DNA of 35,657 nucleotides from a virus (taxonomy: Duplodnaviria; Heunggongvirae; Uroviricota; Caudoviricetes): IMG/VR virus record IMGVR_UViG_2534681762_000014; one strand, 5' to 3'. Positions 1,374 through 27,856 of this stretch are shown here, one piece after another; the first letter of the stretch is position 1; the number at the start of each line of letters is the position of its first letter. Below the pieces are notes generated by a model. That model was not told the origin of the DNA. It did no database searches and worked only from the letters and a program-made list of their open reading frames with translations. The position numbers and the translations under genes are program-made.

Positions 1374-1399
1374 TCCCTCAAAACTGGAACCTATATAGG
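1356..1399. promoter_or_regulatory. Two copies of the 10-bp palindrome CCTATATAGG (1356-1365 and 1390-1399), candidate repressor operators
   Basis: Exact repeat, 34 bp centre to centre, in the C/cox intergenic switch region. Confidence 0.4.
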
Positions 1400-1465
1400 C
1401 TCCATTGATTTGAGAATAAACCAGCGTCTAAACGGTTTTGAGTGGTTTAGAAAGGGCTGGATCCT

Positions 1466-1753
1466 ATGAGGGTACCATATATGGACGCTGAAAATTATGT
1501 GATTCAGTATCCGCTTGATGCGGTTCATGTGGATAAATTTGCTGATTTATTAGGGAAGCCAAAGACAGCCGTCAGTGAAATGGTGAAGGCAAATAAATTA
1601 CCAATTATTGAATTGCGTGATCCTTGCAAACCGAAGGCTCGTGCCGGTGAAAAATGGGTTTTCATTCCTGAGTTTAATCGCGCTGTACGTGAGGCGTTTT
1701 ATAACCGACCGGTTGAACAGCGTGATGCATGGCTTTTGTGGATGGGGTTGTGA
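1466..1753 (+). CDS. cox: Cox-like excisionase / early-operon regulator
   Basis: About 95-aa protein divergent from C; C-terminal region (WVFIPEFN...RDAWLLWMGL) resembles P2 Cox; the exact start (1466 or a downstream ATG) is uncertain. Confidence 0.7.
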   Translation: MRVPYMDAENYVIQYPLDAVHVDKFADLLGKPKTAVSEMVKANKLPIIELRDPCKPKARAGEKWVFIPEFNRAVREAFYNRPVEQRDAWLLWMGL

Positions 1754-1755
1754 TT

Positions 1756-1926
1756 ATGAATGAGCCGCGTTGTATTGCTCAGTTATTGCGTAACGAAAGC
1801 CCCAGGGCGATTGACTTCACCATCACCCACGGGAAGGGTCGCAAGGGAATCATTATCCGCACCAAAAAACAGAGTCCGTTAAAAAAGGCTCTGACCTTTC
1901 TGAAAAGCCGGAGGGTCTGGAAATGA
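1756..1926 (+). CDS. Small early protein, P2 orf78-like
   Basis: ATG overlaps the cox stop; position corresponds to P2 orf78; no motif recognised. Confidence 0.45.
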   Translation: MNEPRCIAQLLRNESPRAIDFTITHGKGRKGIIIRTKKQSPLKKALTFLKSRRVWK

Positions 1927-2423
1927 CAGTGATGACGCTCAATCTCGTCGAAAAACAGCCAGCAGCTATGCGCCGGATAATTGGTAAGCATCTTGCCGTC
2001 CCTCGCTGGCAGGATACATGTGATTATTATAATCAGATGATGGAGCGCGAACGGCTAACGGTTTGCTTTCATGCACAGTTAAAACAGCGTCACGCAACGA
2101 TGCGTTTTGAAGAAATGAACGACGTCGAACGTGAACGGCTGGTTTGTGCAATTGATGAATTGCGCGGGGCATTCTCAAAACGCCGTCAGGTTGGCGCAAG
2201 TGAGTATGCATATATTAGCTTTTTAACTGTCAGTCAGCGCCGTACTTTATTTATGCATGCCGGATTGACTGAAAAAGAATTCAACCAGCCATACTGGCGA
2301 ATTAATGAAGAGTCATGTTACTGGCGTGATGCTTTATTCCGTGCATTACGTGAATTATTCAGCCTGTTTGAGTATGCACCGACAATTCTGACGTCGGTAA
2401 AACCAGAGCAATATCTGCATTAA
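1923..2423 (+). CDS. B: Replication protein B (helicase-loader type), 166 aa
   Basis: Size and position identical to P2 gpB; start overlaps the upstream stop. Confidence 0.8.
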   Translation: MTVMTLNLVEKQPAAMRRIIGKHLAVPRWQDTCDYYNQMMERERLTVCFHAQLKQRHATMRFEEMNDVERERLVCAIDELRGAFSKRRQVGASEYAYISFLTVSQRRTLFMHAGLTEKEFNQPYWRINEESCYWRDALFRALRELFSLFEYAPTILTSVKPEQYLH

Positions 2424-2486
2424 GTAATTAACCAGAGTTTTTAACGCACTTAATTGTGCGGGGCTTCTTTTTGCCTGGAGAAAGTC

Positions 2487-2711
2487 ATGCATACAGTTTC
2501 TGAAAATCAGTGCGGTAAATACGCATTACTGCTGCAACAGGCCAGAACCGAAGCACAGGCCGACGCAGCGACGCGCTTTTCTTCTCATCTTGACGCCATG
2601 ATTCGCCACATCACAAAGGCGGAGTTATCCCGCGTGGAGATAGTCGAGCTGCTCAGTCAGGAGTCGGAAAAATTTCACAATATCGGATTGTCTCGCGGGG
2701 AGGTGTTTTGA
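2487..2711 (+). CDS. Hypothetical early protein, P2 orf80 position
   Basis: ORF with GGAG upstream of the ATG at 2487; stop overlaps the next start. Confidence 0.45.
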
Positions 2712-3013
2712 TGTCCTGTTCTTGTTCAGTTGTATTACTGAATAACGCCCTAAAAATCGCCGTTATGAAAAATGGCGATTTGTCTCTTATTCAACTTGGT
2801 CTTGATAAAGAAAAACGCGAAATAACTGAGTCTGTTATCGCGATTTATCAGAACGAATTAAACCTCCTGTCTGATGTGGTCAATTTACTTGTTAAACGCG
2901 CTGTGTTTCACAAGCAAATCTCCTCCGTGGATGAACTGACGAAATTAACGACAGAAATCGCCAGCTATTGCGCTGATGAATTTAAAAACCTTAACGACAA
3001 AAGGAACTGGTAA
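2711..3013 (+). CDS. Hypothetical early protein, P2 orf81 position
   Basis: ORF translationally coupled to its neighbours (overlapping stop and start). Confidence 0.45.
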   Translation: MSCSCSVVLLNNALKIAVMKNGDLSLIQLGLDKEKREITESVIAIYQNELNLLSDVVNLLVKRAVFHKQISSVDELTKLTTEIASYCADEFKNLNDKRNW

Positions 3014-3237
3014 TGCCGGACAACGTAGATTTTATTCAGGAACAACAGGCTGAATTACTGGAGCGCCAGATTAACGCGGCAAGGGTAAAACATTGCGGTG
3101 CTTCTGCGCTGGTTTGCGAAGAGTGTGACGCGCCAATACCTGCTGCCCGTCGTGCGGCTTATCCGTCAGCCACGCGTTGTGTTTCCTGTCAGTCAGTCTT
3201 TGAAGCAAAAAACAAACATTACCGGAGAACGGCATGA
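3013..3237 (+). CDS. TraR/DksA-family C4 zinc-finger protein, P2 orf82 position
   Basis: CxxC...CxxC spacing (CEECD...CVSCQ) typical of the TraR/DksA fold. Confidence 0.65.
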   Translation: MPDNVDFIQEQQAELLERQINAARVKHCGASALVCEECDAPIPAARRAAYPSATRCVSCQSVFEAKNKHYRRTA

Positions 3238-3509
3238 GTATTCGTATCGAAATTGGCGAACGTTATGTCGTTACCAGTGACAGCTTTCAGTTTATTCTCC
3301 ACGAGAAAAAGAGAGCTGAAAGCGGTAAAAACGCCGGTCAGGAATGGCTGGCGGTGGTTGGTTATTACCCGAAATTAAGCCAGCTCGTTTCCGGCCTGAT
3401 GCATCACGATATTCTGACCGGAAGCGCAAAGTCTTTTGCTGATTTAAACGCGCAGGTTGAGCAACTCAGCAAGCGTTGTTCAGAGGCTTTTGGCTCATAT
3501 GGCCGTTAA
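3234..3509 (+). CDS. Hypothetical early protein, P2 orf83 position
   Basis: ORF coupled to orf82 and overlapping the A start. Confidence 0.45.
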   Translation: MSIRIEIGERYVVTSDSFQFILHEKKRAESGKNAGQEWLAVVGYYPKLSQLVSGLMHHDILTGSAKSFADLNAQVEQLSKRCSEAFGSYGR

Positions 3510-5778
3510 AGCCTCCGGGCGTTTTGTCCCTCCGTCAGCATTTGCCGCAGGCACCGGTAAGATGTTTACCGGTGCTTATGCATGGAACGCGCCACGCGAG
3601 GCCGTCGGGCGCGAAAGACCCCTTACACGTGATGAGATGCGTCAGGTGCAAGGTGTTTTATCCACGATTAACCGCCTGCCTTACTTTTTGCGCTCACTGT
3701 TTACTTCACGCTATGACTACATCCGGCGCAATAAAAGCCCGGTGCACGGGTTTTATTTCCTCACATCCACTTTTCAGCGTCGTTTATGGCCGCGCATTGA
3801 GCGTGTGAATCAGCGCCATGAAATGAACACCGACGCGTCGTTGCTGTTTCTGGCAGAGCGTGACCACTATGCGCGCCTGCCGGGAATGAATGACAAGGAG
3901 CTGAAAAAGTTTGCCGCCCGTATCTCATCGCAGCTTTTCATGATGTATGAGGAACTCAGCGATGCCTGGGTGGATGCGCATGGCGAAAAAGAATCACTGT
4001 TTACGGATGAGGCTCAGGCTCACCTGTATGGTCATGTTGCTGGCGCTGCACGAGCTTTCAATATTTCCCCTCTCTACTGGAAAAAATACCGTAAAGGACA
4101 GATGACCACGAGGCAGGCATATTCTGCCATTGCCCGTCTGTTTAACGATGAGTGGTGGACTCATCAGCTTAAAGGCCAGCGTATGCGCTGGCATGAAGCG
4201 TTACTGATAGCTGTCGGGGAGGTCAATAAAGACCGTTCTCCTTATGCCAGTAAACACGCCATTCGTGATGTGCGTGCGCGCCGCCAGGCAAATCTGGAAT
4301 TTCTTAAATCGTGTGACCTTGAAAACAGGGAAACCGGCGAGCGCATCGACCTTATCAGTAAGGTGATGGGCAGTATTTCTAATCCTGAAATTCGCCGGAT
4401 GGAGCTGATGAACACCATTGCCGGTATTGAGCGTTACGCCGCCGCAGAGGGTGATGTGGGGATGTTTATCACGCTGACCGCGCCGTCAAAGTATCACCCG
4501 ACACGTCAGGTAGGAAAAGGCGAAAGTAAAACCGTGCAGCTTAATCACGGCTGGAACGATGAGGCATTTAATCCAAAGGATGCGCAGCGTTATCTCTGCC
4601 GTATCTGGAGCCTGATGCGCACGGCATTCAAGGATAATGATTTACAGGTCTACGGTTTGCGTGTCGTCGAGCCACACCACGACGGAACGCCGCACTGGCA
4701 TATGATGCTTTTTTGTAATTCACGCCAGCGTAACCAGATTATCGAAATCATGCGTCGCTATGCGCTCAAAGAGGATGGCGACGAAAGAGGAGCCGCGCGA
4801 AACCGTTTTCAGGCAAAACACCTTAACCGGGGCGGTGCTGCGGGATATATCGCGAAATACATTTCAAAAAACATCGACGGCTATGCACTGGATGGTCAGC
4901 TCGATAACGACACCGGCAGGCCGCTGAAAGACACTGCAGCGGCTGTTACCGCATGGGCGTCAACGTGGCGCATCCCGCAATTTAAAACGGTTGGCCTGCC
5001 GACAATGGGGGCTTACCGTGAACTACGCAAATTGCCTCGTGGCGTCAGCATTGCTGATGAGTTTGACGAACGCGTCGAGGCTGCTCGCGCTGCCGCAGAC
5101 AGCGGTGATTTTGCGTTGTATATCAGCGCGCAGGGTGGGGCAAATGTCCCGCGCGATTGTCAGACTGTCAGGGTTGCCCGTAGCCCGTCGGATGACGTTA
5201 ACGAGTACGAGGAAGAAGTCGAGAGAGTGGTCGGCATTTACGCGCCGCATCTCGGCGCGCGTCATATTCATATCACCAGAACGACGGACTGGCGCATTGT
5301 TCCGAAAGTGCCGGTCGTTGAGCCTTTGACTTTAAAAAGCGGCATCGCCGCGCCTCGGAGTCCTGTCAATAACTGTGGAAAACTCACCGGTGGTGATACT
5401 TCGTTACCGGCTCCCACACCTTCTGAGCACGCCGCAGCAGTGCTTAATCTGGTTGATGACGGTGTTATCGAATGGAGTGACCCGGAGGTCGTGAGGGCGC
5501 TCAGAGGTGCATTAAAACACGGTCGGAGAACGCCAAGTCGTCAGCAAAGAAACGGAAGCCCGTTAAAACCGCATGAAATTGCACCATCGGCCAGAATGAC
5601 CCGGTCGGAAAGAATGCAAATTACCCGTATCCGCGTTGACCTTGCTCAGAAGGGTATCAGGCCGCAGCGATGGGAGCTTGAGGCGCTGGCGCGTGGCGCG
5701 ACCGTAAATTATAACGGGAAAAAATTCACGTATCCGGTCGCTGATGAGTGGCCGGGCTTTACTGGCAGTACCACATAG
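3499..5778 (+). CDS. A: Replication initiation endonuclease A (rolling-circle initiator), about 759 aa
   Basis: Long ORF with P2 gpA-like sequence; start taken at the ATG at 3499 (MAVKASGRF); conserved Tyr-containing region (GAAGYIAKYISK). Confidence 0.85.
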   Translation: MAVKASGRFVPPSAFAAGTGKMFTGAYAWNAPREAVGRERPLTRDEMRQVQGVLSTINRLPYFLRSLFTSRYDYIRRNKSPVHGFYFLTSTFQRRLWPRIERVNQRHEMNTDASLLFLAERDHYARLPGMNDKELKKFAARISSQLFMMYEELSDAWVDAHGEKESLFTDEAQAHLYGHVAGAARAFNISPLYWKKYRKGQMTTRQAYSAIARLFNDEWWTHQLKGQRMRWHEALLIAVGEVNKDRSPYASKHAIRDVRARRQANLEFLKSCDLENRETGERIDLISKVMGSISNPEIRRMELMNTIAGIERYAAAEGDVGMFITLTAPSKYHPTRQVGKGESKTVQLNHGWNDEAFNPKDAQRYLCRIWSLMRTAFKDNDLQVYGLRVVEPHHDGTPHWHMMLFCNSRQRNQIIEIMRRYALKEDGDERGAARNRFQAKHLNRGGAAGYIAKYISKNIDGYALDGQLDNDTGRPLKDTAAAVTAWASTWRIPQFKTVGLPTMGAYRELRKLPRGVSIADEFDERVEAARAAADSGDFALYISAQGGANVPRDCQTVRVARSPSDDVNEYEEEVERVVGIYAPHLGARHIHITRTTDWRIVPKVPVVEPLTLKSGIAAPRSPVNNCGKLTGGDTSLPAPTPSEHAAAVLNLVDDGVIEWSDPEVVRALRGALKHGRRTPSRQQRNGSPLKPHEIAPSARMTRSERMQITRIRVDLAQKGIRPQRWELEALARGATVNYNGKKFTYPVADEWPGFTGSTT

Positions 5779-6081
5779 CTGAATACTTTAATTGACGCTG
5801 AAACTATCAGAGGGGATGTGTTTGATTAAATAAACAATGTGTTGAGATCTACTTACTGGGTTGTTGATAAGAAAATTTAGCTCTTGGTCAGCAAGAGATT
5901 ATACTGATTGCGATTAGGCTAGGGATAACGTGGGCAATTTCTGTTGTTGGAAGCTGGGTTTTACGAGCGAAAAAAGTATGTGATTTGTGGTTTTGCCCTT
6001 ATAGTATGCGCAATTTAGGAGTGAAAACTATAACCATAAGCTTTAATTATTTCTACTTTTTAGGTATGTCCGGAGGCTCTC

Positions 6082-7077
6082 ATGACTACTAAGCCAATGA
6101 GTCGACTATATGAAAAAATCAGCAAGGCGGGGTTTAGCCGTTCATTTATACGCAAAGTCTTACCTTCATGGTGGGACGACAGCCTAGCTGATACACCTTC
6201 AGGTAAGCAGTACGCTAGCCTTCATTTGGCTCGTGTTTTTAGTTTGTCTCCAGAAAGTCTCAAGGATGGTTCTGAATCTGCGTCTTTCAACCTTGGTGGA
6301 AATCATCGCTTTAAACATCGTGTAAATCTTGGTGAGGAAGACCTGAATGTTGCTACTGCCGTTGCATATTCTGCGGCGAGGATTGTAGCAGAGAATTTCA
6401 GTATCCCGTTTAATCCAAACGCAGAACTTAATTGGCAGGCAGTGAGGGATAAACTGCTCAGCGATAAAAAGTGGGTGGATTTGGCTTCTCTGATTGGTTT
6501 TTGCCATTCGTTAGGCATTCCTGTTGTCTACATTAAGAACTTTCCAACGGGTGCGGCAAAAATGGCTGGCCTTGCATTAAGTGTATCTGGTAGGCCAGTA
6601 ATTGTTTTAACCCAAGCTAAAACCCATGGATTTATGCTATTTGATTTGGCTCATGAGCTTGGTCATATTGCACTAGGCCATCTCAATGATCTCAATGGGG
6701 GGGTCCATGTTGATCGCAAAATTGAAGCGCAGTCTACTAACAATCTTGAGGTGGCAGCTAACAAATATGCCTTTGGTTTGATTGGTGGAAAAGAGACTTT
6801 GAGAATAGCACCTACAAGGGGCTATCTCACAGGTGAAAAATTGGCTAGAGCTGCGCTAGTATATGGTACACAGCATTGCATAGAGCCAACTCATGTAGCT
6901 TTGAACTATGGTCACAATTTAGGGCACTGGGGAGTGGCTGTTAACGCTGTTAAAAGTATTTGCGTGGGACAACCGACAGACCAATCTTTAGCTAGGCAGC
7001 TCATGATGGATGCCATCGATCACGAAAATATTAATGACGACGACTTAGAACTTTTAACGACGCTATGTGGGGTTTAA
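6082..7077 (+). CDS. ImmA/IrrE-family zinc metallopeptidase-domain protein, 331 aa, hotspot cargo gene 1
   Basis: HExxH motif in the typical ImmA/IrrE context (FMLFDLAHELGHIALGH at about residues 185-200); good RBS (GGAGG) upstream; AT-rich relative to the phage backbone. Confidence 0.7.
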   Translation: MTTKPMSRLYEKISKAGFSRSFIRKVLPSWWDDSLADTPSGKQYASLHLARVFSLSPESLKDGSESASFNLGGNHRFKHRVNLGEEDLNVATAVAYSAARIVAENFSIPFNPNAELNWQAVRDKLLSDKKWVDLASLIGFCHSLGIPVVYIKNFPTGAAKMAGLALSVSGRPVIVLTQAKTHGFMLFDLAHELGHIALGHLNDLNGGVHVDRKIEAQSTNNLEVAANKYAFGLIGGKETLRIAPTRGYLTGEKLARAALVYGTQHCIEPTHVALNYGHNLGHWGVAVNAVKSICVGQPTDQSLARQLMMDAIDHENINDDDLELLTTLCGV

Positions 7078-7080
7078 GTA

Positions 7081-7603
7081 GTGATCGTTCTTTCAGACAA
7101 TGATGTCATTTTGAAACTAGCGCAGTGTAATTTACTCCGTTACCTTCCTGAGATTTTGGAAGAGGATCCGCGAGGCATCTATGTTAGTCCGACGGCTCGT
7201 TTTCAATTATTACCGCGCAATACTGATAAAGCCATTAAGAAGTGCGGTAGTGTGGCTATTTACGAAAATGTGGAAAGATTTCTAGGAAGTGTGCAAGTTA
7301 TTGATGAAATCAGAAACGATGATTTGCTGATTAAACTTGGTGAGATACCACACATAGATGTCGGCGAACAACAGCTTTTAGCTGCATGCGTTGAGCAACC
7401 AGGAGCTTTGTTCATGACAGGTGACCGTCGATGTTTGCAGGCTGTGATGGACAATCAGACTATTGTCGCTACGGTTCATGCGCGTCTAATTGACTCAGTA
7501 ATAACCTATGAGAGTGCTCTTTTGCTTTCTGTTCGCGTTTTAGGATTTGAGACTCTATATCAACAACTACAAACGAACCCGAATCCAGATGCAATGCTGA
7601 GGA
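7081..7603 (+). pseudogene. PIN-like putative nuclease, N-terminal fragment (residues 1-174); gene interrupted by IS10
   Basis: GTG start 3 bp after the peptidase stop; N-terminal MIVLSDNDVIL resembles the first PIN strand with its acidic residue; later TGD motif; the frame runs into IS10 at 7604. Confidence 0.55.
7595..7603. repeat. IS10 target-site duplication, left copy (TGCTGAGGA)
   Basis: Identical 9-mer directly flanks both IS10 ends; fits the IS10 GCTNAGC preference. Confidence 0.85.
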
Positions 7604-8932
7604 CTGATGAATCCCCTAATGATTTTTATCAAAATCATTAAGTTAAGGTAGATACACATCTTGTCATATGATCAAATGGTTTCGCCAAAAATCAATAATC
7701 AGACAACAAGATGTGCGAACTCGATATTTTACACGACTCTCTTTACCAATTCTGCCCCGAATTACACTTAAAACGACTCAACAGCTTAACGTTGGCTTGC
7801 CACGCATTACTTGACTGTAAAACTCTCACTCTTACCGAACTTGGCCGTAACCTGCCAACCAAAGCGAGAACAAAACATAACATCAAACGAATCGACCGAT
7901 TGTTAGGTAATCGTCACCTCCACAAAGAGCGACTCGCTGTATACCGTTGGCATGCTAGCTTTATCTGTTCGGGCAATACGATGCCCATTGTACTTGTTGA
8001 CTGGTCTGATATTCGTGAGCAAAAACGACTTATGGTATTGCGAGCTTCAGTCGCACTACACGGTCGTTCTGTTACTCTTTATGAGAAAGCGTTCCCGCTT
8101 TCAGAGCAATGTTCAAAGAAAGCTCATGACCAATTTCTAGCCGACCTTGCGAGCATTCTACCGAGTAACACCACACCGCTCATTGTCAGTGATGCTGGCT
8201 TTAAAGTGCCATGGTATAAATCCGTTGAGAAGCTGGGTTGGTACTGGTTAAGTCGAGTAAGAGGAAAAGTACAATATGCAGACCTAGGAGCGGAAAACTG
8301 GAAACCTATCAGCAACTTACATGATATGTCATCTAGTCACTCAAAGACTTTAGGCTATAAGAGGCTGACTAAAAGCAATCCAATCTCATGCCAAATTCTA
8401 TTGTATAAATCTCGCTCTAAAGGCCGAAAAAATCAGCGCTCGACACGGACTCATTGTCACCACCCGTCACCTAAAATCTACTCAGCGTCGGCAAAGGAGC
8501 CATGGGTTCTAGCAACTAACTTACCTGTTGAAATTCGAACACCCAAACAACTTGTTAATATCTATTCGAAGCGAATGCAGATTGAAGAAACCTTCCGAGA
8601 CTTGAAAAGTCCTGCCTACGGACTAGGCCTACGCCATAGCCGAACGAGCAGCTCAGAGCGTTTTGATATCATGCTGCTAATCGCCCTGATGCTTCAACTA
8701 ACATGTTGGCTTGCGGGCGTTCATGCTCAGAAACAAGGTTGGGACAAGCACTTCCAGGCTAACACAGTCAGAAATCGAAACGTACTCTCAACAGTTCGCT
8801 TAGGCATGGAAGTTTTGCGGCATTCTGGCTACACAATAACAAGGGAAGACTTACTCGTGGCTGCAACCCTACTAGCTCAAAATTTATTCACACATGGTTA
8901 CGCTTTGGGGAAATTATGAGGGGATCTCTCAG
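7604..8932 (+). mobile_element. IS10 (IS4 family), complete 1329-bp copy
   Basis: Outside end CTGATGAATCCCCTAATGATTTT at 7604 and inside end ...GGGGATCTCTCAG at 8932; length exactly 1329 bp; encodes the 402-aa IS10 transposase. Confidence 0.9.
7711..8919 (+). CDS. tnp: IS10 transposase, 402 aa
   Basis: Translation recognised as Tn10/IS10 transposase (MCELDILHDSLYQF...HGYALGKL). Confidence 0.9.
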   Translation: MCELDILHDSLYQFCPELHLKRLNSLTLACHALLDCKTLTLTELGRNLPTKARTKHNIKRIDRLLGNRHLHKERLAVYRWHASFICSGNTMPIVLVDWSDIREQKRLMVLRASVALHGRSVTLYEKAFPLSEQCSKKAHDQFLADLASILPSNTTPLIVSDAGFKVPWYKSVEKLGWYWLSRVRGKVQYADLGAENWKPISNLHDMSSSHSKTLGYKRLTKSNPISCQILLYKSRSKGRKNQRSTRTHCHHPSPKIYSASAKEPWVLATNLPVEIRTPKQLVNIYSKRMQIEETFRDLKSPAYGLGLRHSRTSSSERFDIMLLIALMLQLTCWLAGVHAQKQGWDKHFQANTVRNRNVLSTVRLGMEVLRHSGYTITREDLLVAATLLAQNLFTHGYALGKL

Positions 8933-8941
8933 TGCTGAGGA
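8933..8941. repeat. IS10 target-site duplication, right copy (TGCTGAGGA)
   Basis: Exact match to 7595-7603. Confidence 0.85.
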
Positions 8942-9060
8942 TGGCTATGCGTTCTCGCAGCTCAGAAGATGTTTGTGGCTGCTTCTTTTCTTATACGCGC
9001 CCTGTATACGATTATCTGGCCTTTAAACAACATTTACCGGATCGTGCTTGGTTGCTTTAA
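8942..9060 (+). pseudogene. PIN-like gene, displaced C-terminal fragment (38 codons plus stop)
   Basis: When one duplication copy and IS10 are removed, the 7081 frame continues open for 39 codons to TAA at 9058-9060. Confidence 0.5.
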
Positions 9061-9123
9061 TCTATCCGTAATGAGTGTTTAGCGCATCAATTTGCATGAG
9101 TATATGATGCACGAATATTATAT

Positions 9124-9149
9124 AGCCCGTCAGTAATGGCGGGCTTTTT
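9124..9149 (+). terminator. Rho-independent terminator candidate downstream of the hotspot operon
   Basis: Stem AGCCCGTC/GGCGGGCT with 6-nt loop followed by TTTT. Confidence 0.45.
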
Positions 9150-9193
9150 ACTATCTGGTGCATCTGCATCAAAACCGCCCCATGAAGCGGGCG

Positions 9194-9212
9194 GGCGAGG
9201 CGGGGAAAGCAC
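9194..9212. other. cos: cos site: P2-type 19-nt cohesive-end sequence GGCGAGGCGGGGAAAGCAC
   Basis: Matches the P2 cohesive end as I recall it; located between the hotspot and the portal gene as in P2. Confidence 0.6.
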
Positions 9213-9354
9213 TGCGCGCTGGCGGTGGTGCTGATTTTATTTTTTCAGCGTCTGAGCGCGTCGTGATGGCGTTTAGATTGTGCGTCGGGGCGTTGGTGTA
9301 TCTAAGGGGTGTTTTGTGCGGTGGTGAGCGTGTGAGGGCGTGATGACGGGATGT

Positions 9355-9376
9355 AAAAAAGCCGCCCGCAGGCGGC
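9355..9376 (-). terminator. Rho-independent terminator downstream of Q (minus strand)
   Basis: GC-rich hairpin GCCGCC-CGCA-GGCGGC preceded on the plus strand by A6 (U-run on minus), immediately after the Q stop. Confidence 0.6.
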
Positions 9377-9381
9377 GATGT

Positions 9382-9875
9382 TCAGTCGTTGTCAGTGTCC
9401 AGTGAGTAGTTTTTAAAGCGGATGACCTCCTGACCGAGCCAGCCGTTTATCTCTCGGATCCTGTCCTGTAACGGGATAAGCTCATTGCGGACAAAGACCT
9501 TTGCCACTTTCTCAATATCACCCAGCGACCCGACGTTCTCCGGCTTGCCGCCCATCAACTGAAAGGGGATGCGGTGTGCGTCCAGCAGGTCAGCGGCGCT
9601 GGCTTTTTTGATATTAAAAAAATCGTCCTTCGTTGCCACTTCACTGAGTGGGATAATTTTAATGCCGTCAGCTTTCCCCTGCGGGGCATAGAGAAACAGG
9701 TTTTTAAAGTTGTTGCGGCCTTTCGACTTCACCATGTTTTCGCGAAGCATTTCGATATCGTTGCGATCCTGCACGGCATCGGTGACGTACATGATATATC
9801 CGGCATGTGCGCCATTTTCGTAATACTTGCGGCGGAACAGCGTGGCCGACTCATTCAGCCAGGCAGAGTTAAGGG
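9382..9875 (-). pseudogene. Q: Portal protein Q, C-terminal fragment (gene split by IS66-family insertion)
   Basis: Translation continues the portal sequence (...NSAWLNESATLFRRKYY...) from the fragment at 12575-13123; the apparent Met at 9886-9888 lies inside the IS. Confidence 0.8.
9868..9875. repeat. IS66-family target-site duplication, left copy (GTTAAGGG)
   Basis: Same 8-mer at 12575-12582, flanking the element. Confidence 0.75.
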
Positions 9876-9928
9876 GTAACCGGCTCATTTAAACCGTCTG
9901 GTCTGTTTCCTCCGGCTCTACAAAAATA

Positions 9929-10606
9929 ATGTCCATCATTTTTAATGGACACTATCGTATGAAACACCGGACCTGGATCACTGAAGCTTTACGTCTTCAC
10001 TTTGAAGAACATTTACCCCGGGTTGTGGCCGGGCGTCGCCTGGGTGTACCAAAATCAACAGTTTGTAGTATGTTCGTGCGCTTTCGGAGAGCTGGCCTTT
10101 CGTGGCCTTTGCCCGCAGGCATGTCGGAGCAGGAACTTGATGCCTGCCTTTACGGACAATTTTCCACGGTACCAGTCGTACGTCCTGAAAGCACCGTTAT
10201 ATCCGAAGCCCCCGTGGTAAAAAAACGTCCCCGGCGGCCCAACTTCCCTTATGAGTTTAAAATCGCCTTAGTGGAGCAGTCACTGCAGCCCGGAGCCTGT
10301 GTGGCGCAGATCGCCCGGGAAAACGGAATCAACGATAACCTGCTCTTCAACTGGCGCCATCAATACCGGAAAGGTGGCCTGCTGCCTTCCGGAAAAAATA
10401 TGCCGGCACTGCTTCCCGTGACGTTAACGCCGGAGCCGGATAATAAAATCCCGGCCCCCGCACAGGAACCAGAGCAGATAAATACACCGTCCGACAGTCT
10501 GTGTTGTGAGCTGGTTCTGCCGGCCGGAACTCTCAGGCTTAAAGGTAAACTGACGCCGGCGTTATTACAGACACTTATCCGCGAAATAAAAGGGAGCAGC
10601 CACTGA
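9929..10606 (+). CDS. tnpA: IS66-family accessory protein TnpA (orf1), with an N-terminal HTH-like extension
   Basis: Contains the IS66 orf1 signature (PNFPYEFKIALVEQSLQPGACVAQIARENGINDNLLFNWR); true start may be the downstream Met at 9959. Confidence 0.7.
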   Translation: MSIIFNGHYRMKHRTWITEALRLHFEEHLPRVVAGRRLGVPKSTVCSMFVRFRRAGLSWPLPAGMSEQELDACLYGQFSTVPVVRPESTVISEAPVVKKRPRRPNFPYEFKIALVEQSLQPGACVAQIARENGINDNLLFNWRHQYRKGGLLPSGKNMPALLPVTLTPEPDNKIPAPAQEPEQINTPSDSLCCELVLPAGTLRLKGKLTPALLQTLIREIKGSSH

Positions 10607-10953
10607 TGATATCTCTCCCTGCAGGTTCGCGTATCTGGCTGGTTGCAGGTATCACCGATATGCGAAATGGCTTTAACGGCCTGGCATCAAAAGTTCAGAA
10701 CGTCCTGAAGGATGACCCGTTCTCCGGACACCTGTTCATCTTCCGCGGACGCCGGGGTGACCAGATAAAAGTGTTGTGGGCTGACAGTGACGGACTGTGC
10801 CTCTTCACCAAACGCCTGGAGCGGGGCCGCTTCGTCTGGCCAGTCACCCGTGACGGCAAGGTGCACCTTACTCCGGCTCAGTTATCCATGCTTCTTGAAG
10901 GTATCAACTGGAAGCACCCGAAACGAACGGAACGCGCTGGAATCCGCATATAA
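10606..10953 (+). CDS. tnpB: IS66-family TnpB (orf2), 115 aa
   Basis: Characteristic size and sequence; overlapping stop/start with orf1. Confidence 0.8.
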   Translation: MISLPAGSRIWLVAGITDMRNGFNGLASKVQNVLKDDPFSGHLFIFRGRRGDQIKVLWADSDGLCLFTKRLERGRFVWPVTRDGKVHLTPAQLSMLLEGINWKHPKRTERAGIRI

Positions 10954-10972
10954 CCCGTTGTAAAGTGAGGAT

Positions 10973-12544
10973 ATGGACACCTCACTTGCTCATGAGAACG
11001 CCCGCCTGCGGGCACTGTTGCAGACGCAACAGGACACCATACGCCAGATGGCTGAATACAACCGCCTGCTCTCACAGCGGGTGGCGGCTTATGCTTCCGA
11101 AATCAACCGGCTGAAGGCGCTGGTTGCGAAACTGCAACGTATGCAGTTCGGTAAAAGCTCAGAAAAACTTCGTGCAAAAACCGAACGGCAGATACAGGAA
11201 GCACAGGAGCGAATCAGCGCACTTCAGGAAGAAATGGCGGAAACGCTGGGTGAGCAATATGACCCGGTACTGCCATCCGCCCTGCGCCAGTCTTCAGCCC
11301 GTAAACCGTTACCGGCCTCACTTCCCCGTGAAACCCGGGTTATCCGGCCGGAAGAGGAATGCTGTCCTGCCTGTGGTGGTGAACTCAGTTCTCTGGGATG
11401 TGATGTGTCAGAGCAACTGGAGCTTATCAGCAGCGCCTTTAAGGTTATCGAAACACAACGTCCGAAACTGGCCTGTTGTCGGTGCGACCATATCGTGCAG
11501 GCACCAGTACCTTCAAAACCCATTGCACGCAGTTATGCCGGAGCGGGGCTCCTGGCCCATGTCGTCACCGGAAAATATGCAGACCATCTGCCGTTATACC
11601 GCCAGTCAGAGATATACCGCCGTCAGGGTGTGGAGCTGAGCCGTGCCACACTGGGGCGCTGGACAGGTGCCGTTGCTGAACTACTGGAGCCGCTGTATGA
11701 CGTCCTGCGCCAGTATGTGCTGATGCCCGGTAAAGTCCATGCTGATGATATCCCCGTCCCGGTCCAGGAGCCGGGCAGCGGTAAAACCCGGACAGCCCGG
11801 CTGTGGGTCTACGTCCGTGATGACCGTAACGCCGGTTCACAGATGCCCCCGGCGGTCTGGTTCGCGTACAGTCCGGACCGGAAAGGTATCCATCCACAAA
11901 ATCACCTGGCCGGTTACAGCGGTGTGCTTCAGGCCGATGCTTACGGTGGTTACCGGGCGTTATACGAATCCGGCAGAATAACGGAAGCCGCGTGTATGGC
12001 TCATGCCCGGAGAAAAATCCACGATGTGCATGCAAGAGCGCCCACCTACATCACCACGGAAGCCCTGCAGCGTATCGGTGAACTGTATGCCATCGAGGCA
12101 GAGGTCCGGTGCTGTTCAGCAGAACAGCGTCTGGCGGCAAGAAAAGCCAGAGCCGCGCCACTGATGCAGTCACTGTATGACTGGATACAGCAACAGATGA
12201 AAACACTGTCGCGTCACTCAGATACGGCAAAAGCGTTCGCATACCTGCTGAAACAGTGGGATGCACTGAACGTGTACTGCAGTAATGGCTGGGTGGAAAT
12301 CGACAACAACATCGCAGAGAACGCCTTACGGGGAGTGGCCGTAGGCCGGAAAAACTGGATGTTCGCGGGTTCCGACAGCGGTGGTGAACATGCGGCGGTG
12401 TTGTACTCGCTGATCGGCACATGCCGTCTGAACAATGTGGAGCCAGAAAAGTGGCTGCGTTACGTCATTGAACATATCCAGGACTGGCCGGCAAACCGGG
12501 TACGCGATCTGTTGCCCTGGAAAGTTGATCTGAGCTCTCAGTAA
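10973..12544 (+). CDS. tnpC: IS66-family transposase TnpC, 523 aa
   Basis: Characteristic size; N-terminal coiled coil, CxxC-type zinc-finger region, DDE core. Confidence 0.85.
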
Positions 12545-12574
12545 ATATCAATACGGTTCTGACGAGTCGCTTAC

Positions 12575-12582
12575 GTTAAGGG
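12575..12582. repeat. IS66-family target-site duplication, right copy (GTTAAGGG)
   Basis: Exact match to 9868-9875. Confidence 0.75.
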
Positions 12583-13123
12583 CGCTGAGATATTCCGGCA
12601 GGCCGTACAGCTCCTGATTAATATCCGGCTCCAGCAGGTGAAACACGGAGCCGGGTGCGAAGGCTGTCGGCTCGTTGAAGGACGGCACCCACCAGTAAAC
12701 ATCCTCCTCCACACCACGGCGGGTATATTTTGCCGGTGAGGTTTCCAGTCTGATGACCTTACCGGTGGTGCTGTAACGCTTTTCCAGAAACGCATTACCG
12801 AACACCAGAAAATCCAGCACAAAGCGGCTGAAATCCTGCTGGGAAAGCCACGGGTGCGGAATAAACGTTGAAGCCAGAATATTACGTTTGACGTAAATCG
12901 GTGAGCTGTGATGCACGGCAGCACGCAGGCTTTTTGCCAGACCGGTAAAGCTGACCGGTGGCTCATACCATCTGCCGTTACTGATGCACTCGACGTAATC
13001 CAGAATGTCACGGCGGTCGAGTACCGGCACCGGCTCACCAAAGGTGAATGCCTCCATTTTTGGGGCACTGGCAGTCATTTTTTTTGCCGCAGGTTGCGGT
13101 GTTTTCCCTTTTTTCTTGCTCAT
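12575..13123 (-). pseudogene. Q: Portal protein Q, N-terminal fragment
   Basis: Starts MSKKKGKTPQPAAKKMTA...; the last 9 codons of the listed ORF (to 12548) are IS-derived. Confidence 0.8.
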
Positions 13124-23234: not shown

Positions 23235-23838
23235 TTCGCGACTGCTGCCGACTGGCTCATCACCGCTTGAAGTTGCCGCCGCAAAAGCCTGTGCGGAAAT
23301 TGAAAAAACGCCGGTCAGTATTCGTGAGCTGTGGAACCCGGACACCTGCCCGGCAAATCTGCTGCCGTGGCTGGCGTGGTCATTTTCGGTTGACCGCTGG
23401 GATGATAAGTGGCCGGAAGCGACAAAACGCGCAGTTATCCGCGATGCGTATTTCATTCACTGCCATAAGGGCACTATAGGCGCAATCCGGCGTGTGGTGG
23501 AGCCGCTCGGCTATCTGATTGAGGTGAGGGAGTGGTGGCAGCTCAACGAGGAGCCGGGGACGTTCCGTATCGTTGTTGGTGTGCTTGAGCAGGGTATTAC
23601 CGAAGAAATGTATCAGGAGCTGGAGCGTCTTGTTGCTGATGCAAAACCGGCAAGCCGCCATCTGACGGGACTGGCTATCAGCTTAAGTACAACCGGCAAC
23701 ATTTTTGCCGGTGCGGGATGCTATCACGGCGACGCCATGACGGTTTATCCCTACACCCCGGAAGCCATTATTGTCGGAGGGGATTATTTCCCGGCCTCGG
23801 CCATTCATTTAATTGATAACCTGAGAGTAAACGCATGA
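23227..23838 (+). CDS. I: Baseplate/tail-fibre attachment protein I
   Basis: 203 aa; overlapping stop/start with J and H. Confidence 0.75.
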   Translation: MSDSRLLPTGSSPLEVAAAKACAEIEKTPVSIRELWNPDTCPANLLPWLAWSFSVDRWDDKWPEATKRAVIRDAYFIHCHKGTIGAIRRVVEPLGYLIEVREWWQLNEEPGTFRIVVGVLEQGITEEMYQELERLVADAKPASRHLTGLAISLSTTGNIFAGAGCYHGDAMTVYPYTPEAIIVGGDYFPASAIHLIDNLRVNA

Positions 23839-25034
23839 CAGTGAAATACTACGCCATTCTGACTAATCAGGGCGCAGCACGGCTGGCTAACGCGACGATG
23901 CTCGGCAGTAAGCTGAATCTGACGCAAATGGCCGTTGGTGATGCGAATGGTGTCTTGCCGACACCAGACCCGGCACAGACAAAACTGATTAACCAGAAAC
24001 GCATCGCGCCGCTGAATCTTCTGAGTGTTGACCCGAACAACCAGAGCCAGATTATTGCGGAGCAAATCATCCCTGAGAACGAGGGCGGATTCTGGATCCG
24101 TGAGATTGGGCTTTATGATGATGAAGGCGTACTCATTGCGGTGGCGAACTGCCCGGAAACGTACAAACCGCAGTTGCAGGAAGGCAGTGGTCGTACCCAG
24201 ACTATCCGCATGATTCTGGTTGTCACGAATACCGAAGCTATCACGCTGAAAATCGACCCGTCGGTGGTACTGGCGACCCGTAAATACGTGGATGATGAAG
24301 TCCTGGAATTAAGGCTGTATGTGGATGACCAGATGAGAAACCACATTGCCGCACAGGATCCTCATACCCAGTATGCGCAGAAACATAATCCGACATTTAC
24401 CGGAGAACCAAAAGCGCCGACGCCTGCCGCAGGAAATAACACCACGCGGATTGCGACCACTGAGTTTGTTCAGGCCGCTATTACCGCTCTGATTAACGGT
24501 GCGCCTGACACGCTGGACACACTGAAAGAAATTGCCGCGGCCATTAACAATGACCCGAAATTCAGCACCACCATTAACAATGCGCTGTCAGGTAAGCAGC
24601 CACTGGATGAGACGCTGACTCATTTGAGTGGAAAGGATGTTGCTGGTCTTCTCGCATACCTTCAATTGAAATCGGCCGCACAACGGGATGTGGGCACTGG
24701 CGCAAATCAAATCCCGGATATGAACTCTTTTCATATCTCAACGTCACAAACAGGATGGTGCAAATTTCCAAATGGACTAATTTTGCAGTGGGGAGTGACG
24801 ACAACGATATCTGCGTCTGGTAGTGTTTCTTATCCAATACCATTCCCTGGTGGTTGTTTATTTGTGGGTAAAAATACTTATAGTCCAGTGGCTGCAACAA
24901 CCGCTGTGTTTGAAATTGTTAATCCGTCTATGACTGGTTTCACTGCTGCAAACATCGGCAGTCTTACGCAAGGGTCTTCCACTTTTAATGCACCAACACC
25001 GTCAGGAATGGCGTTTTTTGCAATTGGATATTAA
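23835..25034 (+). CDS. H: Tail fibre protein H (constant N-terminal part plus currently joined variable tip), 399 aa
   Basis: N-terminus (MTVKYYAILTNQGAARLANA) is the conserved P2 fibre start; the tip begins inside the inverted repeat at 24661. Confidence 0.8.
   Translation: MTVKYYAILTNQGAARLANATMLGSKLNLTQMAVGDANGVLPTPDPAQTKLINQKRIAPLNLLSVDPNNQSQIIAEQIIPENEGGFWIREIGLYDDEGVLIAVANCPETYKPQLQEGSGRTQTIRMILVVTNTEAITLKIDPSVVLATRKYVDDEVLELRLYVDDQMRNHIAAQDPHTQYAQKHNPTFTGEPKAPTPAAGNNTTRIATTEFVQAAITALINGAPDTLDTLKEIAAAINNDPKFSTTINNALSGKQPLDETLTHLSGKDVAGLLAYLQLKSAAQRDVGTGANQIPDMNSFHISTSQTGWCKFPNGLILQWGVTTTISASGSVSYPIPFPGGCLFVGKNTYSPVAATTAVFEIVNPSMTGFTAANIGSLTQGSSTFNAPTPSGMAFFAIGY
24661..24723. repeat. 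Left inverted repeat of the invertible tail-fibre segment, containing the candidate invertase crossover site
   Basis: About 63 bp with roughly 85 percent identity to the reverse complement of 27133-27195; begins with the 10-bp palindrome TTCAATTGAA exactly where homology starts. Confidence 0.65.
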
Positions 25035-25036
25035 TC

Positions 25037-25468
25037 ATGAGCTATGTATACAGCGCTAAAAAAAACGCTTTCTATCCCGTCGAGTTGCAGGACAACTATG
25101 AGGCATCAGGAACGTGGCCTGCCGATGGGATAGAAGTTGGAGTGGATGTATTTAATATTTTTTCTCAGCTACCACCAGAAGGTAAACAGAGAATTCCTGA
25201 TAGCAATGGAATGCCTGCCTGGGGCGATATTCCGCCGCCCACTCATGATGAATTAGTTGCTGCGGCAACTGCCGAGAAACAGCATCGCATTGATGCTGCG
25301 AATGCATTCATGAGCAGCAGGCAATGGCCGGGAAAGGCCGCGATGGGGCGTCTGAGCGCTGCGGACAAAGTTCAGTATAATTTATGGCTGGATTATCTTG
25401 ATGCGCTGGAGGCAGTGGATACTGCCATCGCGCCGGATATCAACTGGCCTGCTCGCCCGGCTGAGTAG
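25037..25468 (+). CDS. G: Tail fibre assembly chaperone (gpG/Tfa), expressed orientation
   Basis: 143 aa; conserved C-terminal block (SSRQWPGKAA...QYNLWLDYLDALE) shared with the inverted copy at 26402-26830. Confidence 0.8.
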   Translation: MSYVYSAKKNAFYPVELQDNYEASGTWPADGIEVGVDVFNIFSQLPPEGKQRIPDSNGMPAWGDIPPPTHDELVAAATAEKQHRIDAANAFMSSRQWPGKAAMGRLSAADKVQYNLWLDYLDALEAVDTAIAPDINWPARPAE

Positions 25469-25544
25469 GTCACTCGATATCGGGGCTATAGAGATATCAA
25501 TCGCCTCCATTGCAGGCGTTACCAGATTTTAGCCAAATAAATAT

Positions 25545-25568
25545 CCTCCGGCATAGCCGGAGGTTTTT
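25545..25568 (+). terminator. Rho-independent terminator after tfa
   Basis: 8-bp stem CCTCCGGC/GCCGGAGG, 3-nt loop, followed by TTTTT. Confidence 0.6.
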
Positions 25569-25574
25569 CAAATG

Positions 25575-26282
25575 CGCCTATAAGGCTCTCTTACCAGCCG
25601 CGCCCTAACAGGCGCACACGATCTGACATTTGCATCCAACTTCGTTACTTACGGCCCGTAAACGGGCTGCCCGGATAGGGAATCGATAACTGCTCTCCCA
25701 TTTTATCCTCTTCAAGCTGGTGCTTTATGTAATCCTGTATCTTCGCCGTGTTCTTACCCACCGTATCGACGTAATACCCTCTGCACCAGAACTCCCTGTT
25801 CCTGTATTTGAATTTCAAATCACCAAACTGCTCGTAAAGCATCAGACTGCTTTTCCCTTTCAGATATCCCATAAAGCCGGGTACGCTCATTTTGGGCGGG
25901 ATCTCCACAAGCATATGGATATGATCTGCACAGCATTCAGCTTCCAGAATCCGTACACTTTTCCACTCACACAGCTTTCTCAAAATACAGCCTATTGCTC
26001 TACGCTTCTCTCTGTAGAACACCTGTCTTCGGTATTTTGGCGCAAATACTATGTGATATTTACAGTTCCATCGGGTGTGCGCTAAGCTCTTTTCGTTCCC
26101 CATTGGGACCCCCTTTTGATTTCTTGTTTGACACTTGCAGTTGCCAGACCGCAAGGTGTTTTAACAAATCAAAAGGGGTTTTAATAACTGGCTCAAAGCT
26201 GAAAGCTTTCCGGAACCCCCAGCCTAGCTGGGGGTTTTCTGTGCACAAAAAAGCCCCTGCATTTCTGCAGGGGCCTGATATC
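25575..26282 (-). mobile_element. IS200 (IS200/IS605 family), about 0.7 kb; boundaries approximate within some tens of bp
   Basis: Encodes IS200 TnpA; left-end region has two strong hairpins (26216-26234 and 26253-26274), the outer one preceded by A6 on the plus strand (a terminator on the tnpA strand), as described for IS200; no terminal inverted repeats expected. Confidence 0.75.
25645..26106 (-). CDS. tnpA: IS200 transposase TnpA (Y1 HUH type), about 153 aa
   Basis: Translation recognised as IS200 TnpA (MGNEKSLAHTRWNCKYHIVFAPKYRR...HIHMLVEIP...), with HUH motif HIH. Confidence 0.85.
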   Translation of the reverse strand, partial: PMGNEKSLAHTRWNCKYHIVFAPKYRRQVFYREKRRAIGCILRKLCEWKSVRILEAECCADHIHMLVEIPPKMSVPGFMGYLKGKSSLMLYEQFGDLKFKYRNREFWCRGYYVDTVGKNTAKIQDYIKHQLEEDKMGEQLSIPYPGSPFTGRK

Positions 26283-26358
26283 TGGTGCTGGCTGAATGGA
26301 ATCGAACCATCGTCTTTCCGCGTACAATGCGAAAGCTCTACCACTGAGCTAAACCAGC
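26283..26358 (-). tRNA. tRNA-like sequence, possible tRNA-Thr (anticodon UGU) variant or pseudogene, with encoded CCA
   Basis: Reverse complement reads GCTGGTT-TA-GCTCAGTGGTAGAGC-T-TTCGC-ATTGTAC-GCGGA-AAGAC-GATGG-TTCGATT-CCATT-C-AGCCAGC-A-CCA: canonical D-arm and T-loop, 7-bp acceptor stem, anticodon loop centred on TGT, but one extra nucleotide between the T-stem and acceptor stem. Confidence 0.45.
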
Positions 26359-26401
26359 AATGGTGCAGAATAATACCCGGATTCTGATAAAATGCAATAG
26401 C

Positions 26402-26830
26402 TTATTGTGGCTGAACAGGCCATTCGATATCAGGTGCAGTTGAAATGCCGAGAGCTTCCAGCGCATCGAGATAATCCAGCCACAGGTTATACTGCGCCAG
26501 CTCATCCCCCTTCAGTCTGCCAATAGCCGCTTTGCCCGGCCACTGCCTGCTGCTCATGTAATCGTTGGCCTGGCTAATCAACGCCTGTTTTTTAACGTCA
26601 GCTGCTGCAATGAGTTCTTTGCGTGTAGGTGGGGGCATATCCACCCATACTGGCATTCCATCGTCTGCTCCCAGAGCTTTTCCAGGTGGTGGTGACCCTG
26701 TAAATGTACTGACTATATCATCGCTGATATCAATCATATCAGACATGTCCCATCCCGCCGATTCATAAGACGACAGCCAGGATTTCGGGAAAAAGTTCAC
26801 AGTCGTTGCAGACCATTTATATCCGTTCAT
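26402..26830 (-). CDS. Alternative tail fibre assembly chaperone (Tfa'), inverted orientation
   Basis: 142 aa; same conserved C-terminal block as the tfa at 25037-25468, divergent N-terminus; convergent with it. Confidence 0.75.
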   Translation of the reverse strand: MNGYKWSATTVNFFPKSWLSSYESAGWDMSDMIDISDDIVSTFTGSPPPGKALGADDGMPVWVDMPPPTRKELIAAADVKKQALISQANDYMSSRQWPGKAAIGRLKGDELAQYNLWLDYLDALEALGISTAPDIEWPVQPQ

Positions 26831-26834
26831 TTAT

Positions 26835-27195
26835 TTAGCTCCCGAACGCCAGCCAGAATATTGTCATTGTACTGGCTGTATTCGTTGTGTATATGCTGAA
26901 TCGCGACGTGCTATCTACATTGACGTTGAAACTGACAGGTCCGGTTCCATAGAGGCCGGGGTTAACCAGAGCAGGAATCACACAGGAGCAACGGTTAGGA
27001 AACGGAACAGGAAAAAACACAGCGTTACCTGATGAACCACCGGTGATGTTTGGTGCATTTCCCCCATCAATACCATGCCATTTGGAAACCGGTAATAAAA
27101 TGCCATGGTTGTCGAACCGCCCGTAAAACTGCTCATATCCGGTATCTGATTCGCACCAGTACCCACGTCTCGTTGCGCGGCCGATTTCAATTGAA
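26835..27195 (-). pseudogene. Alternative tail-fibre variable tip (Hv'), frameshifted
   Basis: Minus strand encodes LKSAAQRDVGTGANQIPDMSSF..., homologous to the H tip, then changes frame (two ORFs, 26978-27235 and 26835-27020); segment length is out of phase with the H frame. Confidence 0.6.
27133..27195. repeat. Right inverted repeat of the invertible tail-fibre segment
   Basis: Reverse complement matches 24661-24723; the TTCAATTGAA palindrome is at 27186-27195. Confidence 0.65.
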
Positions 27196-27262
27196 CGTTT
27201 AAGAAAATGCAGAGATAACGGCTAACTGGCATCATCTCCGGTTTTTATTCAGGGGATCCATC

Positions 27263-27856
27263 ATGCTTATTGGCTATGTCCGCGTATCAACAAATGACCA
27301 GAATACGGAATTGCAGCGTAACGCGCTGGAGTGTGCAGGATGTGAGCTGATTTTTGAGGACAAAATCAGCGGCACGAAGTCCGACTGGCCGGGACTGAAA
27401 AAACTGCTCAGGACATTATCGGAGGGGGATACACTGGTAGTCTGGAAGCTGGACCGGCTGGGGCGTAGTATGCGGCATCTGGTCATTCTGGTTGAGGAGC
27501 TGCGCGAACGCGGCATTAATTTTCGCAGCCTGACGGATGCCATTGATACCAGCACGCCAATGGGGCGTTTTTTCTTTCATGTGATGGGTGCCCTGGCTGA
27601 AATGGAACGAGAACTCATTGTCGAGCGGACTCGCACCGGACTGGAAGCGGCCAGAGCTAAAGGTCGTATTGGTGGCAGACGTCCGAAGCTCACCGCGAGT
27701 GAGTGGGAACAGGCAGGACGGTTGCTGGCTGCGGGTGAATCACGTCAACGCGTGGTGCTGATTTTTGATATTGGCCTGTCCACGCTCTATAAAAAATTCC
27801 CCTCATCAGCGGCAAAGAATAAATTGTGTCATCCCTTAGCCAACCGGGACAAATAG
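27263..27856 (+). CDS. Serine recombinase, Din-family DNA invertase (Pin/Gin/Cin/Hin-like), 197 aa
   Basis: N-terminal catalytic domain with the active-site Ser in MLIGYVRVSTNDQ, the SMRHL and GRFFFHVMGALAEMERE blocks, and a C-terminal HTH; sits immediately outside the right inverted repeat. Confidence 0.9.
   Translation: MLIGYVRVSTNDQNTELQRNALECAGCELIFEDKISGTKSDWPGLKKLLRTLSEGDTLVVWKLDRLGRSMRHLVILVEELRERGINFRSLTDAIDTSTPMGRFFFHVMGALAEMERELIVERTRTGLEAARAKGRIGGRRPKLTASEWEQAGRLLAAGESRQRVVLIFDIGLSTLYKKFPSSAAKNKLCHPLANRDK

Follow-up and report, generated by a model that had tools for sequence, protein, structure and literature searches.

What is a tRNA-like gene doing among the tail-fibre genes of a phage, and could it still serve in translation? 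The question is raised by a stretch of viral DNA of 35,657 nucleotides (IMG/VR virus record IMGVR_UViG_2534681762_000014), referred to here as the window, which is a P2-like prophage. A preliminary description had reported in its tail-fibre region a non-canonical tRNA-like gene of the threonine type (anticodon UGU) and had left three readings side by side: a functional phage tRNA, a tRNA-derived regulatory element and a decayed tRNA. Beyond that description, the present analysis found that the gene lies between convergent chaperone genes within a Din-type invertible segment, that an IS200 element sits at its terminator, that one of the two fibre tips is a pseudogene and that the isoacceptor is the one targeted by the nucleases Old and PARIS AriB.

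ARAGORN found a single tRNA in the 35.7-kb window, a tRNA-Thr with anticodon TGT at positions 26283-26358 of the minus strand. The Infernal/Rfam check proposed in the preliminary description gave a match of the tRNA model RF00005 to positions 26358-26286 over the full model (positions 1-71), with a score of 56.4 bits and an E value of 9.5e-10. This is far beyond chance and well above the gathering score of 29, and the gene could not be dismissed on a sub-threshold score. PGAP likewise labels the identical sequence in E. coli NZ_CP148268 as tRNA-Thr, with no pseudogene flag, so that three annotations concur on a tRNA-Thr(UGU) gene. The minimum free energy (MFE) fold of the 76-nt RNA was a cloverleaf, and a position table confirmed each of the parts read earlier, namely, a 7-bp acceptor stem, the D-arm (D-stem GCUC/GAGC), the TGT anticodon loop (AUUGUAC), the T-loop (UUCGAUU) and an encoded CCA. 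The surplus nucleotide that had been placed between the T-stem and the acceptor stem was seen both in the RF00005 alignment, where the only insertion is a "u" on the 3' side of the T-stem, and as a 1-nt bulge in the MFE fold.

The positions involved in tertiary contacts were all present and all identical to those of the host tRNA-ThrU: U8, A14, G15-C48, G18G19, A21, U33 and A37, and also T54-Psi55-C56, A58, G53-C61 and the triples C13-G22-G46 and U12-A23-A9. The identity set of E. coli threonyl-tRNA synthetase (ThrRS) consists of G1-C72, C2-G71, G35 and U36. The window tRNA has all of these, and its discriminator base, A73, is also that of ThrU.

The one structural flaw is in the coaxial helix formed by the acceptor stem (7 bp) and the T-stem (5 bp), which is interrupted by the sequence CCAUUC where CCAUC is expected. 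Removing one U produced a perfect canonical cloverleaf of 75 nt, with a GAUGG/CCAUC T-stem, that was 2.5 kcal/mol more stable, so that the most plausible origin of the extra base is the insertion of one U into a tRNA that had been canonical. For calibration, the host tRNA-ThrU and the tRNA-Thr(UGU) genes of a lambdoid prophage, phage N4 and a Klebsiella phage were scored in the same way and reached 73.8 to 75.8 bits, about 18 bits above the window tRNA, whereas the host tRNA-Tyr reached 53.4 bits and thus fell below it. The score of the window tRNA is clearly sub-canonical, yet it is inside the range of working host tRNAs. EF-Tu, RNase P and the CCA enzymes contact the acceptor/T-arm helix, and an extra U within this helix, at a cost of about 18 bits and 2.5 kcal/mol, counts against a usable tRNA.

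More than 5,400 genomes had a 100% match to the host tRNA-ThrU sequence, within the thrU-tyrU-glyT-thrT-tufB cluster, and the gene was single copy in nearly all of the 5,426 complete E. coli genomes searched. The window tRNA has the anticodon, identity elements, D-arm and T-loop in common with this gene of the tufB operon but differs in four of the five anticodon-stem pairs and in most acceptor- and T-stem pairs, and also in positions 32/38 (A/C rather than C/A), in a D-loop of 7 nt and in the extra U. Given the differences in the stem pairs, the window tRNA is neither a copy of the host gene nor an attachment-site duplicate, and the latter idea was also rejected on the location of the gene, which is internal to the prophage. 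An origin from some other host tRNA was rejected as well. The sequence pattern was present in none of 185,579 species-representative genomes, and the nearest tRNAs with the same 5' half were identical at only 60 of 76 positions. Among phage and plasmid records, none was more than 79% identical to the window tRNA.

The surroundings of the gene have the layout of an invertible tail-fibre segment. On the plus strand, the constant part of the tail-fibre gene H extends to the crossover core (23835-24662; Pfam Phage_tail_fib, 97 to 99% identical in relatives) and is followed by the expressed fibre tip Hv, whose Gp53-like C-terminal domain is intact (24663-25034; Pfam and ORF check), and by the tail-fibre assembly chaperone of the expressed arm (25037-25468; annotation and ORF). 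Beyond the tRNA, the silent arm on the minus strand comprises a second, intact chaperone gene, tfa' (26402-26830; Pfam Caudo_TAP, E value of 1.7e-27), and the frameshifted fibre tip Hv' (26835-27193; three-frame translation and simulated fusion product). An intact Din-family serine invertase of 197 residues follows on the plus strand (27263-27856; Pfam Resolvase, 7.7e-50, and HTH_7, 6.8e-12), ahead of the sheath gene. The segment is bounded by an 83-nt inverted repeat (24649-24731 and 27125-27207) whose inner 19-nt ends are identical. It contains the left crossover site, TTCTCGCATACC-TT-CAATTGAAATCG, at 24649-24674 and the right crossover site, whose reverse complement reads TTTTCTTAAACG-TT-CAATTGAAATCG, at 27182-27207. 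A search for a classical AAACC-NN-GGTTT core at the repeat ends found none, and the sites were defined from the inverted repeat and by comparison with relatives.

Two of these relatives, the IMG/VR contigs L223 and L236, share the constant H of the window and have invertases that are 95 to 96% identical and flanks that are collinear. Their 1,848-bp interiors (L223:2089-3936 and L236:2086-3933) are precisely inverted with respect to each other at 99.8% identity, indicating that this invertase family does flip its segment and that both states of the switch have been captured. The crossover site of L223 and L236, TTCTCGCATACC-TT-GGTTTGGGAGAA, is fully typical of the Din family. The outer half-sites and the TT core of the window are those of these flipping relatives, whereas both inner half-sites are CAATTGAAATCG, which matches the GGTTTGGGAGAA consensus at 4 of 12 positions. 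Furthermore, Hv' is frameshifted at a run of five G residues (a C run at 27061-27065 of the plus strand) in all six full copies of the segment, such that the fusion frame formed after inversion would stop after 71 codons. With six G residues instead of five, a tip of 119 residues homologous to the expressed Gp53-like tip would be made. The short run may reflect plain decay or be a tract prone to slippage. Both chaperone genes are intact and the Hv' tip is not functional, leaving only one of the two cassettes complete. The six full copies were all in a single orientation, which, together with the frameshift and the atypical inner half-sites, argues against current activity of the switch. The tRNA is therefore on a decaying silent arm that is probably locked, and read-through from the late tail operon is an unlikely route for its expression.

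The tRNA and tfa' share a strand, the tRNA following after 43 nt. The terminator scan found nothing between the two and a strong intrinsic terminator just 3' of the tRNA, at 26247-26276 on the minus strand (an 11-pair stem with seven G-C pairs and a T-run). Direct reading of the sequence also revealed, within the 43-nt gap between the tfa' stop and the tRNA, a candidate sigma-70 promoter (26370-26397, minus strand) consisting of TTGCAT, a 16-nt spacer and TATTAT. Its -10 element is separated from the 5' end of the tRNA by 11 nt, and the site keeps 8 of the 12 consensus positions, among them the TTG and TA...T letters that are conserved best. The promoter scan did not call this site, its score being under the threshold of the tool. 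Where relatives have no tRNA, their convergent chaperone genes either overlap, by 29 nt, or leave 4 nt between them. In the window, with IS200 disregarded, the gap is 228 bp and holds the tRNA and the terminator, which are thus a discrete insertion at a junction that is otherwise compact.

The IS200 element itself occupies 25542-26246 on the minus strand (tnpA, 25645-26103), as determined from Rfam, annotation and the IS-free copies, which join 25541 directly to 26247. Its target was the T-run of the tRNA terminator, which has seven T residues in the IS-free copies and is shortened in the window. IS200 is present at this point in the window and in E. coli Z1323PEC0014 and not in the five other copies. 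An Rfam match to STnc490 at 26113-26236 corresponds to the 5' end of IS200. A hairpin at 25545-25563 was considered as a phage terminator for the expressed arm and was rejected as the other end of IS200, since the IS-free copies run from 25541 to 26247.

The tRNA is rare. It was found in 3 of the 5,426 complete E. coli genomes, in one IMG/VR contig and in two metagenome contigs, and the Hv'-tfa' cassette was confined, among the 5,426, to the same three genomes. The preliminary description would have counted a lack of homologues in related prophages against the gene; identical copies were found in them. All seven copies, among them one in an IS-ridden prophage and one in a prophage remnant, were identical and intact, and with zero variation they provide no evidence of selection or covariation. 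A loose search with the 5' half retrieved only generic host tRNAs (Campylobacter, Helicobacter, Streptococcus and others). No tRNA was found in related phage loci selected by tfa' (0 of 80), the invertase (0 of 79) or the sheath gene (0 of 80), covering about 1.6 Mb in total, and the idea that a tRNA after the chaperone gene is a general feature of such phages was accordingly rejected (0 of 239 loci).

E. coli Z1323PEC0014 carries a prophage between pflA and pflB whose late region is 97.7% identical to that of the window; over the 6.2 kb surrounding the tRNA, IS200 insertion included, the identity is 99.97%. The window is a different prophage, since compared with NZ_CP148268 it differs upstream of about 12.5 kb (1-12575), with the early region rearranged and a right flank that is not pflB. 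Near-identity over 6.2 kb in such related but distinct prophages implies that the tail-fibre block has recently spread between them by recombination. The segment also occurs in the metagenome contig L128, where, at exactly this junction, it adjoins another constant region (238-275; CTCTCGAAAACC-TT/CAATTGAAATCG). The boundary of the cassette thus coincides with the TT crossover core on two backbones, as expected from exchange at a Din site, which suggests that fibre cassettes are exchanged between phage backbones there. Further along this contig (L128:1373-5760), the segment ends 125 nt upstream of the tRNA and gives way to AT-rich cargo, with a 3' fragment of the thrW tRNA-Thr(CGU) gene at about 4370-4448 and a P4-type integrase at 4591-5760. 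The tRNA in L128 survives within a prophage remnant next to a thrW island.

Elsewhere in the window, the cargo region contains an IS10-type element (7649-8919) with an RNA-OUT match of 99.5 bits at 7649-7718 on the minus strand and a transposase of 402 residues at 7711-8919 on the plus strand; this element is not in the Z1323PEC0014 prophage. An IS66-type element lies within 9382-13123 (ORFs of 225, 115 and 523 residues at 9929-12544) and splits the portal gene into fragments at 9382-9888 and 12548-13123. The window prophage is probably unable to make particles. Where P2 has its old/tin cargo hotspot (6082-7641, plus strand), an ORF for an M78-peptidase (IrrE-like) protein of 331 residues is followed by an unassigned one of 186 residues. 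With weak PADLOC matches to capP, RmrA and PD-Lambda-2_B, the two genes may act in defence or as a toxin and antitoxin. Neither Old nor PARIS was recognised in the window prophage, and the idea that the tRNA gives self-immunity against such a system of its own found no support.

Since the ACA codon needs a UGU anticodon, codon use was compared across the ORFs verified in the window. ACA made up 9% of threonine codons in 20 backbone late genes, 32% in the segment and 44% in the arm that carries the tRNA, an enrichment (Fisher p of about 0.0005) that amounts to an excess of only 11 codons. The tRNA co-travels with ACA-rich foreign genes.

A further possible role comes from the nucleases that attack this isoacceptor. 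P2-like phages and P4-like satellites carry Old and PARIS AriB, and tRNA-ThrU is attacked by both, as the main target in the case of P2 Old and as a major one in that of AriB. P2 Old kills through cleavage of the host tRNA-ThrU at paired CNG motifs at positions 28-30 and 40-42, its toxicity is rescued by phage tRNA-Thr(UGU) genes, and resistance to it needs both altered CNG motifs and a shortened anticodon stem (PMC12445682). AriB cuts tRNA-Thr(UGU) between C40 and A41 within U36AAUCA41. In tRNA-Lys, the U39-to-A change abolishes cleavage and A41-to-C inhibits it; T5 tRNAs, including tRNA-Thr(UGU), rescue cells from AriB, which also uses distal determinants beyond the cut site (PMC12409363). 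The window tRNA reads U36ACGCG41 at the corresponding position, with A38 changed to C, U39 to G and A41 to G, and by its sequence around the cut site it may evade AriB, the distal contacts not being readable from sequence. With respect to Old, the 5' CNG motif is lost (CUG to UCG at 28-30, with C28 gone), whereas the 3' motif at 40-42 has changed from CAG to CGG and is still CNG. The anticodon stem (UA, UG, CG, GC, CG) is not shortened. As the 3' CNG is kept and U27-A43 can pair, resistance to Old is not predicted, and the two-factor rule would apply only in part. Moreover, the anticodon stem has diverged from that of ThrU no more than the T-stem or acceptor stem have, so that its changes are no specific signal; they are compatible with counter-defence and are not evidence for it. 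That a P2-family phage carries a nuclease-evading tRNA-Thr(UGU) against the Toprim tRNases of its rivals, in a cassette swappable at the Din core, is a proposal that we consider unlikely. If it were true, a host-range module and a counter-defence would move as one unit between phage backbones.

Three E. coli genomes share a lambdoid prophage (L004) with a canonical tRNA-Thr(UGU) between Q-like and lysis genes (6004-6079). This tRNA keeps both CNG motifs of ThrU and differs within this region only at position 39, and by the published rules it might be sensitive to Old. An STnc100 small RNA match lies 1.8 kb downstream of it (7902-8016).

Taken together, we assign a probability of about 0.5 to the reading that the gene is a usable phage tRNA-Thr(UGU), predicted to read ACA and to supplement or replace the single-copy host tRNA-ThrU. 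A self-contained module, consisting of a weak promoter-like site, the tRNA and a strong terminator, was inserted where the chaperone genes converge, with the tRNA best seen as derived from a canonical one through the insertion of one U. Transcription is proposed to start at the promoter-like site of the module, because read-through from the late operon requires an inversion that has apparently ceased in this segment. RNase P would then remove a leader of 3 to 6 nt and leave the encoded CCA in place, ThrRS would charge the product via G1-C72, C2-G71, G35 and U36, and the charged tRNA would read ACA on the ribosome, supplementing or substituting for tRNA-ThrU. Decoding of the ACA-rich fibre-tip and chaperone genes alongside may be a secondary benefit. 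We infer these steps, as we do any resistance to nucleases, from the features described above. The decaying surroundings (the Hv' frameshift and IS200), the sub-threshold promoter and the rarity of the gene count against the usable tRNA.

We regard a decaying relic as a serious possibility, though a less probable one. Here, a canonical tRNA would have arrived with the foreign fibre-tip cassette and been disabled, or nearly so, by the U insertion in a young clonal lineage. With one U deleted the tRNA is perfectly canonical, its actual score is 18 bits under that of canonical tRNA-Thr(UGU) genes, the neighbouring Hv' has a single-base frameshift in all copies, IS200 is adjacent, and the window prophage also bears IS10 and the IS66-type element in its portal gene. 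The invariance of the copies, which gives no evidence of selection, and their presence in only 3 of 5,426 genomes point the same way. However, the U is the only lesion in a gene whose identity and tertiary positions are all intact, the cloverleaf remains the MFE fold, the score is above that of a working host tRNA (tRNA-Tyr), the terminator and the promoter-like site are intact, and PGAP raised no pseudogene flag. Of the readings left open by the preliminary description, the functional tRNA is thus favoured and decay stays in contention, while a regulatory element found no support.

The other readings invoke expression coupled to the orientation of the segment or roles outside translation, and even jointly they are unlikely. 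A non-translational element might act as a nuclease decoy, as an element in processing or stability of the chaperone mRNA or as a target for recombination or attachment. Competition by viral tRNAs has been raised as a possibility for AriB (PMC12409363), a bulge might hinder translation and yet spare protein binding, and IS200 did target the adjacent hairpin. On the other hand, the ThrRS identity elements, U33, A37 and CCA are all kept, which are what a translating tRNA needs and a decoy does not, and the gene does not lie at either end of a prophage, nor is its 3' end interrupted by an integrated element. We therefore consider such a role improbable. Least probable of all is that the tRNA is expressed mainly after inversion, as the last gene of a late V-W-J-I-H'-G' operon, and is in this way coupled to the host-range state. 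The distance of 43 nt from tfa' with the only terminator beyond the tRNA would suit such an arrangement, as would the intact invertase, the canonical outer half-sites and TT core, the inner halves that are identical on both arms and the precisely inverted segment of a close relative. Phase-variable expression was downgraded upon the discovery of the Hv' frameshift, which in all copies would give a truncated fibre in the flipped state. The agreement of the inner half-sites CAATTGAAATCG with GGTTTGGGAGAA at only 4 of 12 positions and the one orientation of the six full copies further argue against it.

Phage tRNAs are common, and this copy had already been annotated automatically, so the gene by itself is unremarkable. 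What is notable is the combination of an isoacceptor that is the target of Old and PARIS, a P2-like carrier and a cassette boundary at the crossover core on two backbones. If the usable tRNA were both functional and nuclease resistant, the arms race between tRNAs and tRNases would extend to conflicts within the P2/P4 family, and Din cassettes would be shown to be able to move cargo other than fibres. In any case, the one-base bulge provides a natural experiment on the tolerance of the E. coli translation machinery for a distorted acceptor/T helix.

Compared with known invertible segments, the segment in the window resembles Mu G/Gin, P1 C/Cin and e14 P/Pin in having a serine invertase next to it, inverted repeats both at the junction of the constant and variable fibre parts and beside the invertase, and two opposed cassettes each made up of a tip and a chaperone. 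It differs from these Din-type segments in the tRNA and terminator at the point of convergence, the atypical inner half-sites, the pseudogene tip and the single orientation. The literature searched contained no account of a tRNA located within an invertible tail-fibre segment, which is not proof of absence. With the Old-resistant tRNA-Thr6 and tRNA-Thr21 (PMC12445682), the window tRNA shares the UGU anticodon and, with tRNA-Thr21, the change of C28 to U, but unlike them it keeps a full anticodon stem and the 3' CNG. Like the AriB-resistant tRNA-Lys, tRNA-Thr and tRNA-Asn of T5 (PMC12409363), it is substituted around the cut site (positions 38, 39 and 41). Phage tRNA-Thr(UGU) genes in general (T4, T5, N4, phage 21 and lambdoid prophages) have the anticodon, the ThrRS identity elements, the tertiary positions and a length of 76 nt with CCA in common with the window tRNA, which is 75 to 79% identical to the N4, Klebsiella phage and lambdoid prophage copies. 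The extra U at the junction of the T-stem and the acceptor stem occurs in the window tRNA and in none of the tRNAs compared with it. Unlike the known phage genes, it is also outside any tRNA cluster or Q-lysis region: the lambdoid tRNA-Thr(UGU) lies between the Q antiterminator and the lysis genes, whereas the window tRNA occupies the centre of a P2-like invertible tail-fibre segment.
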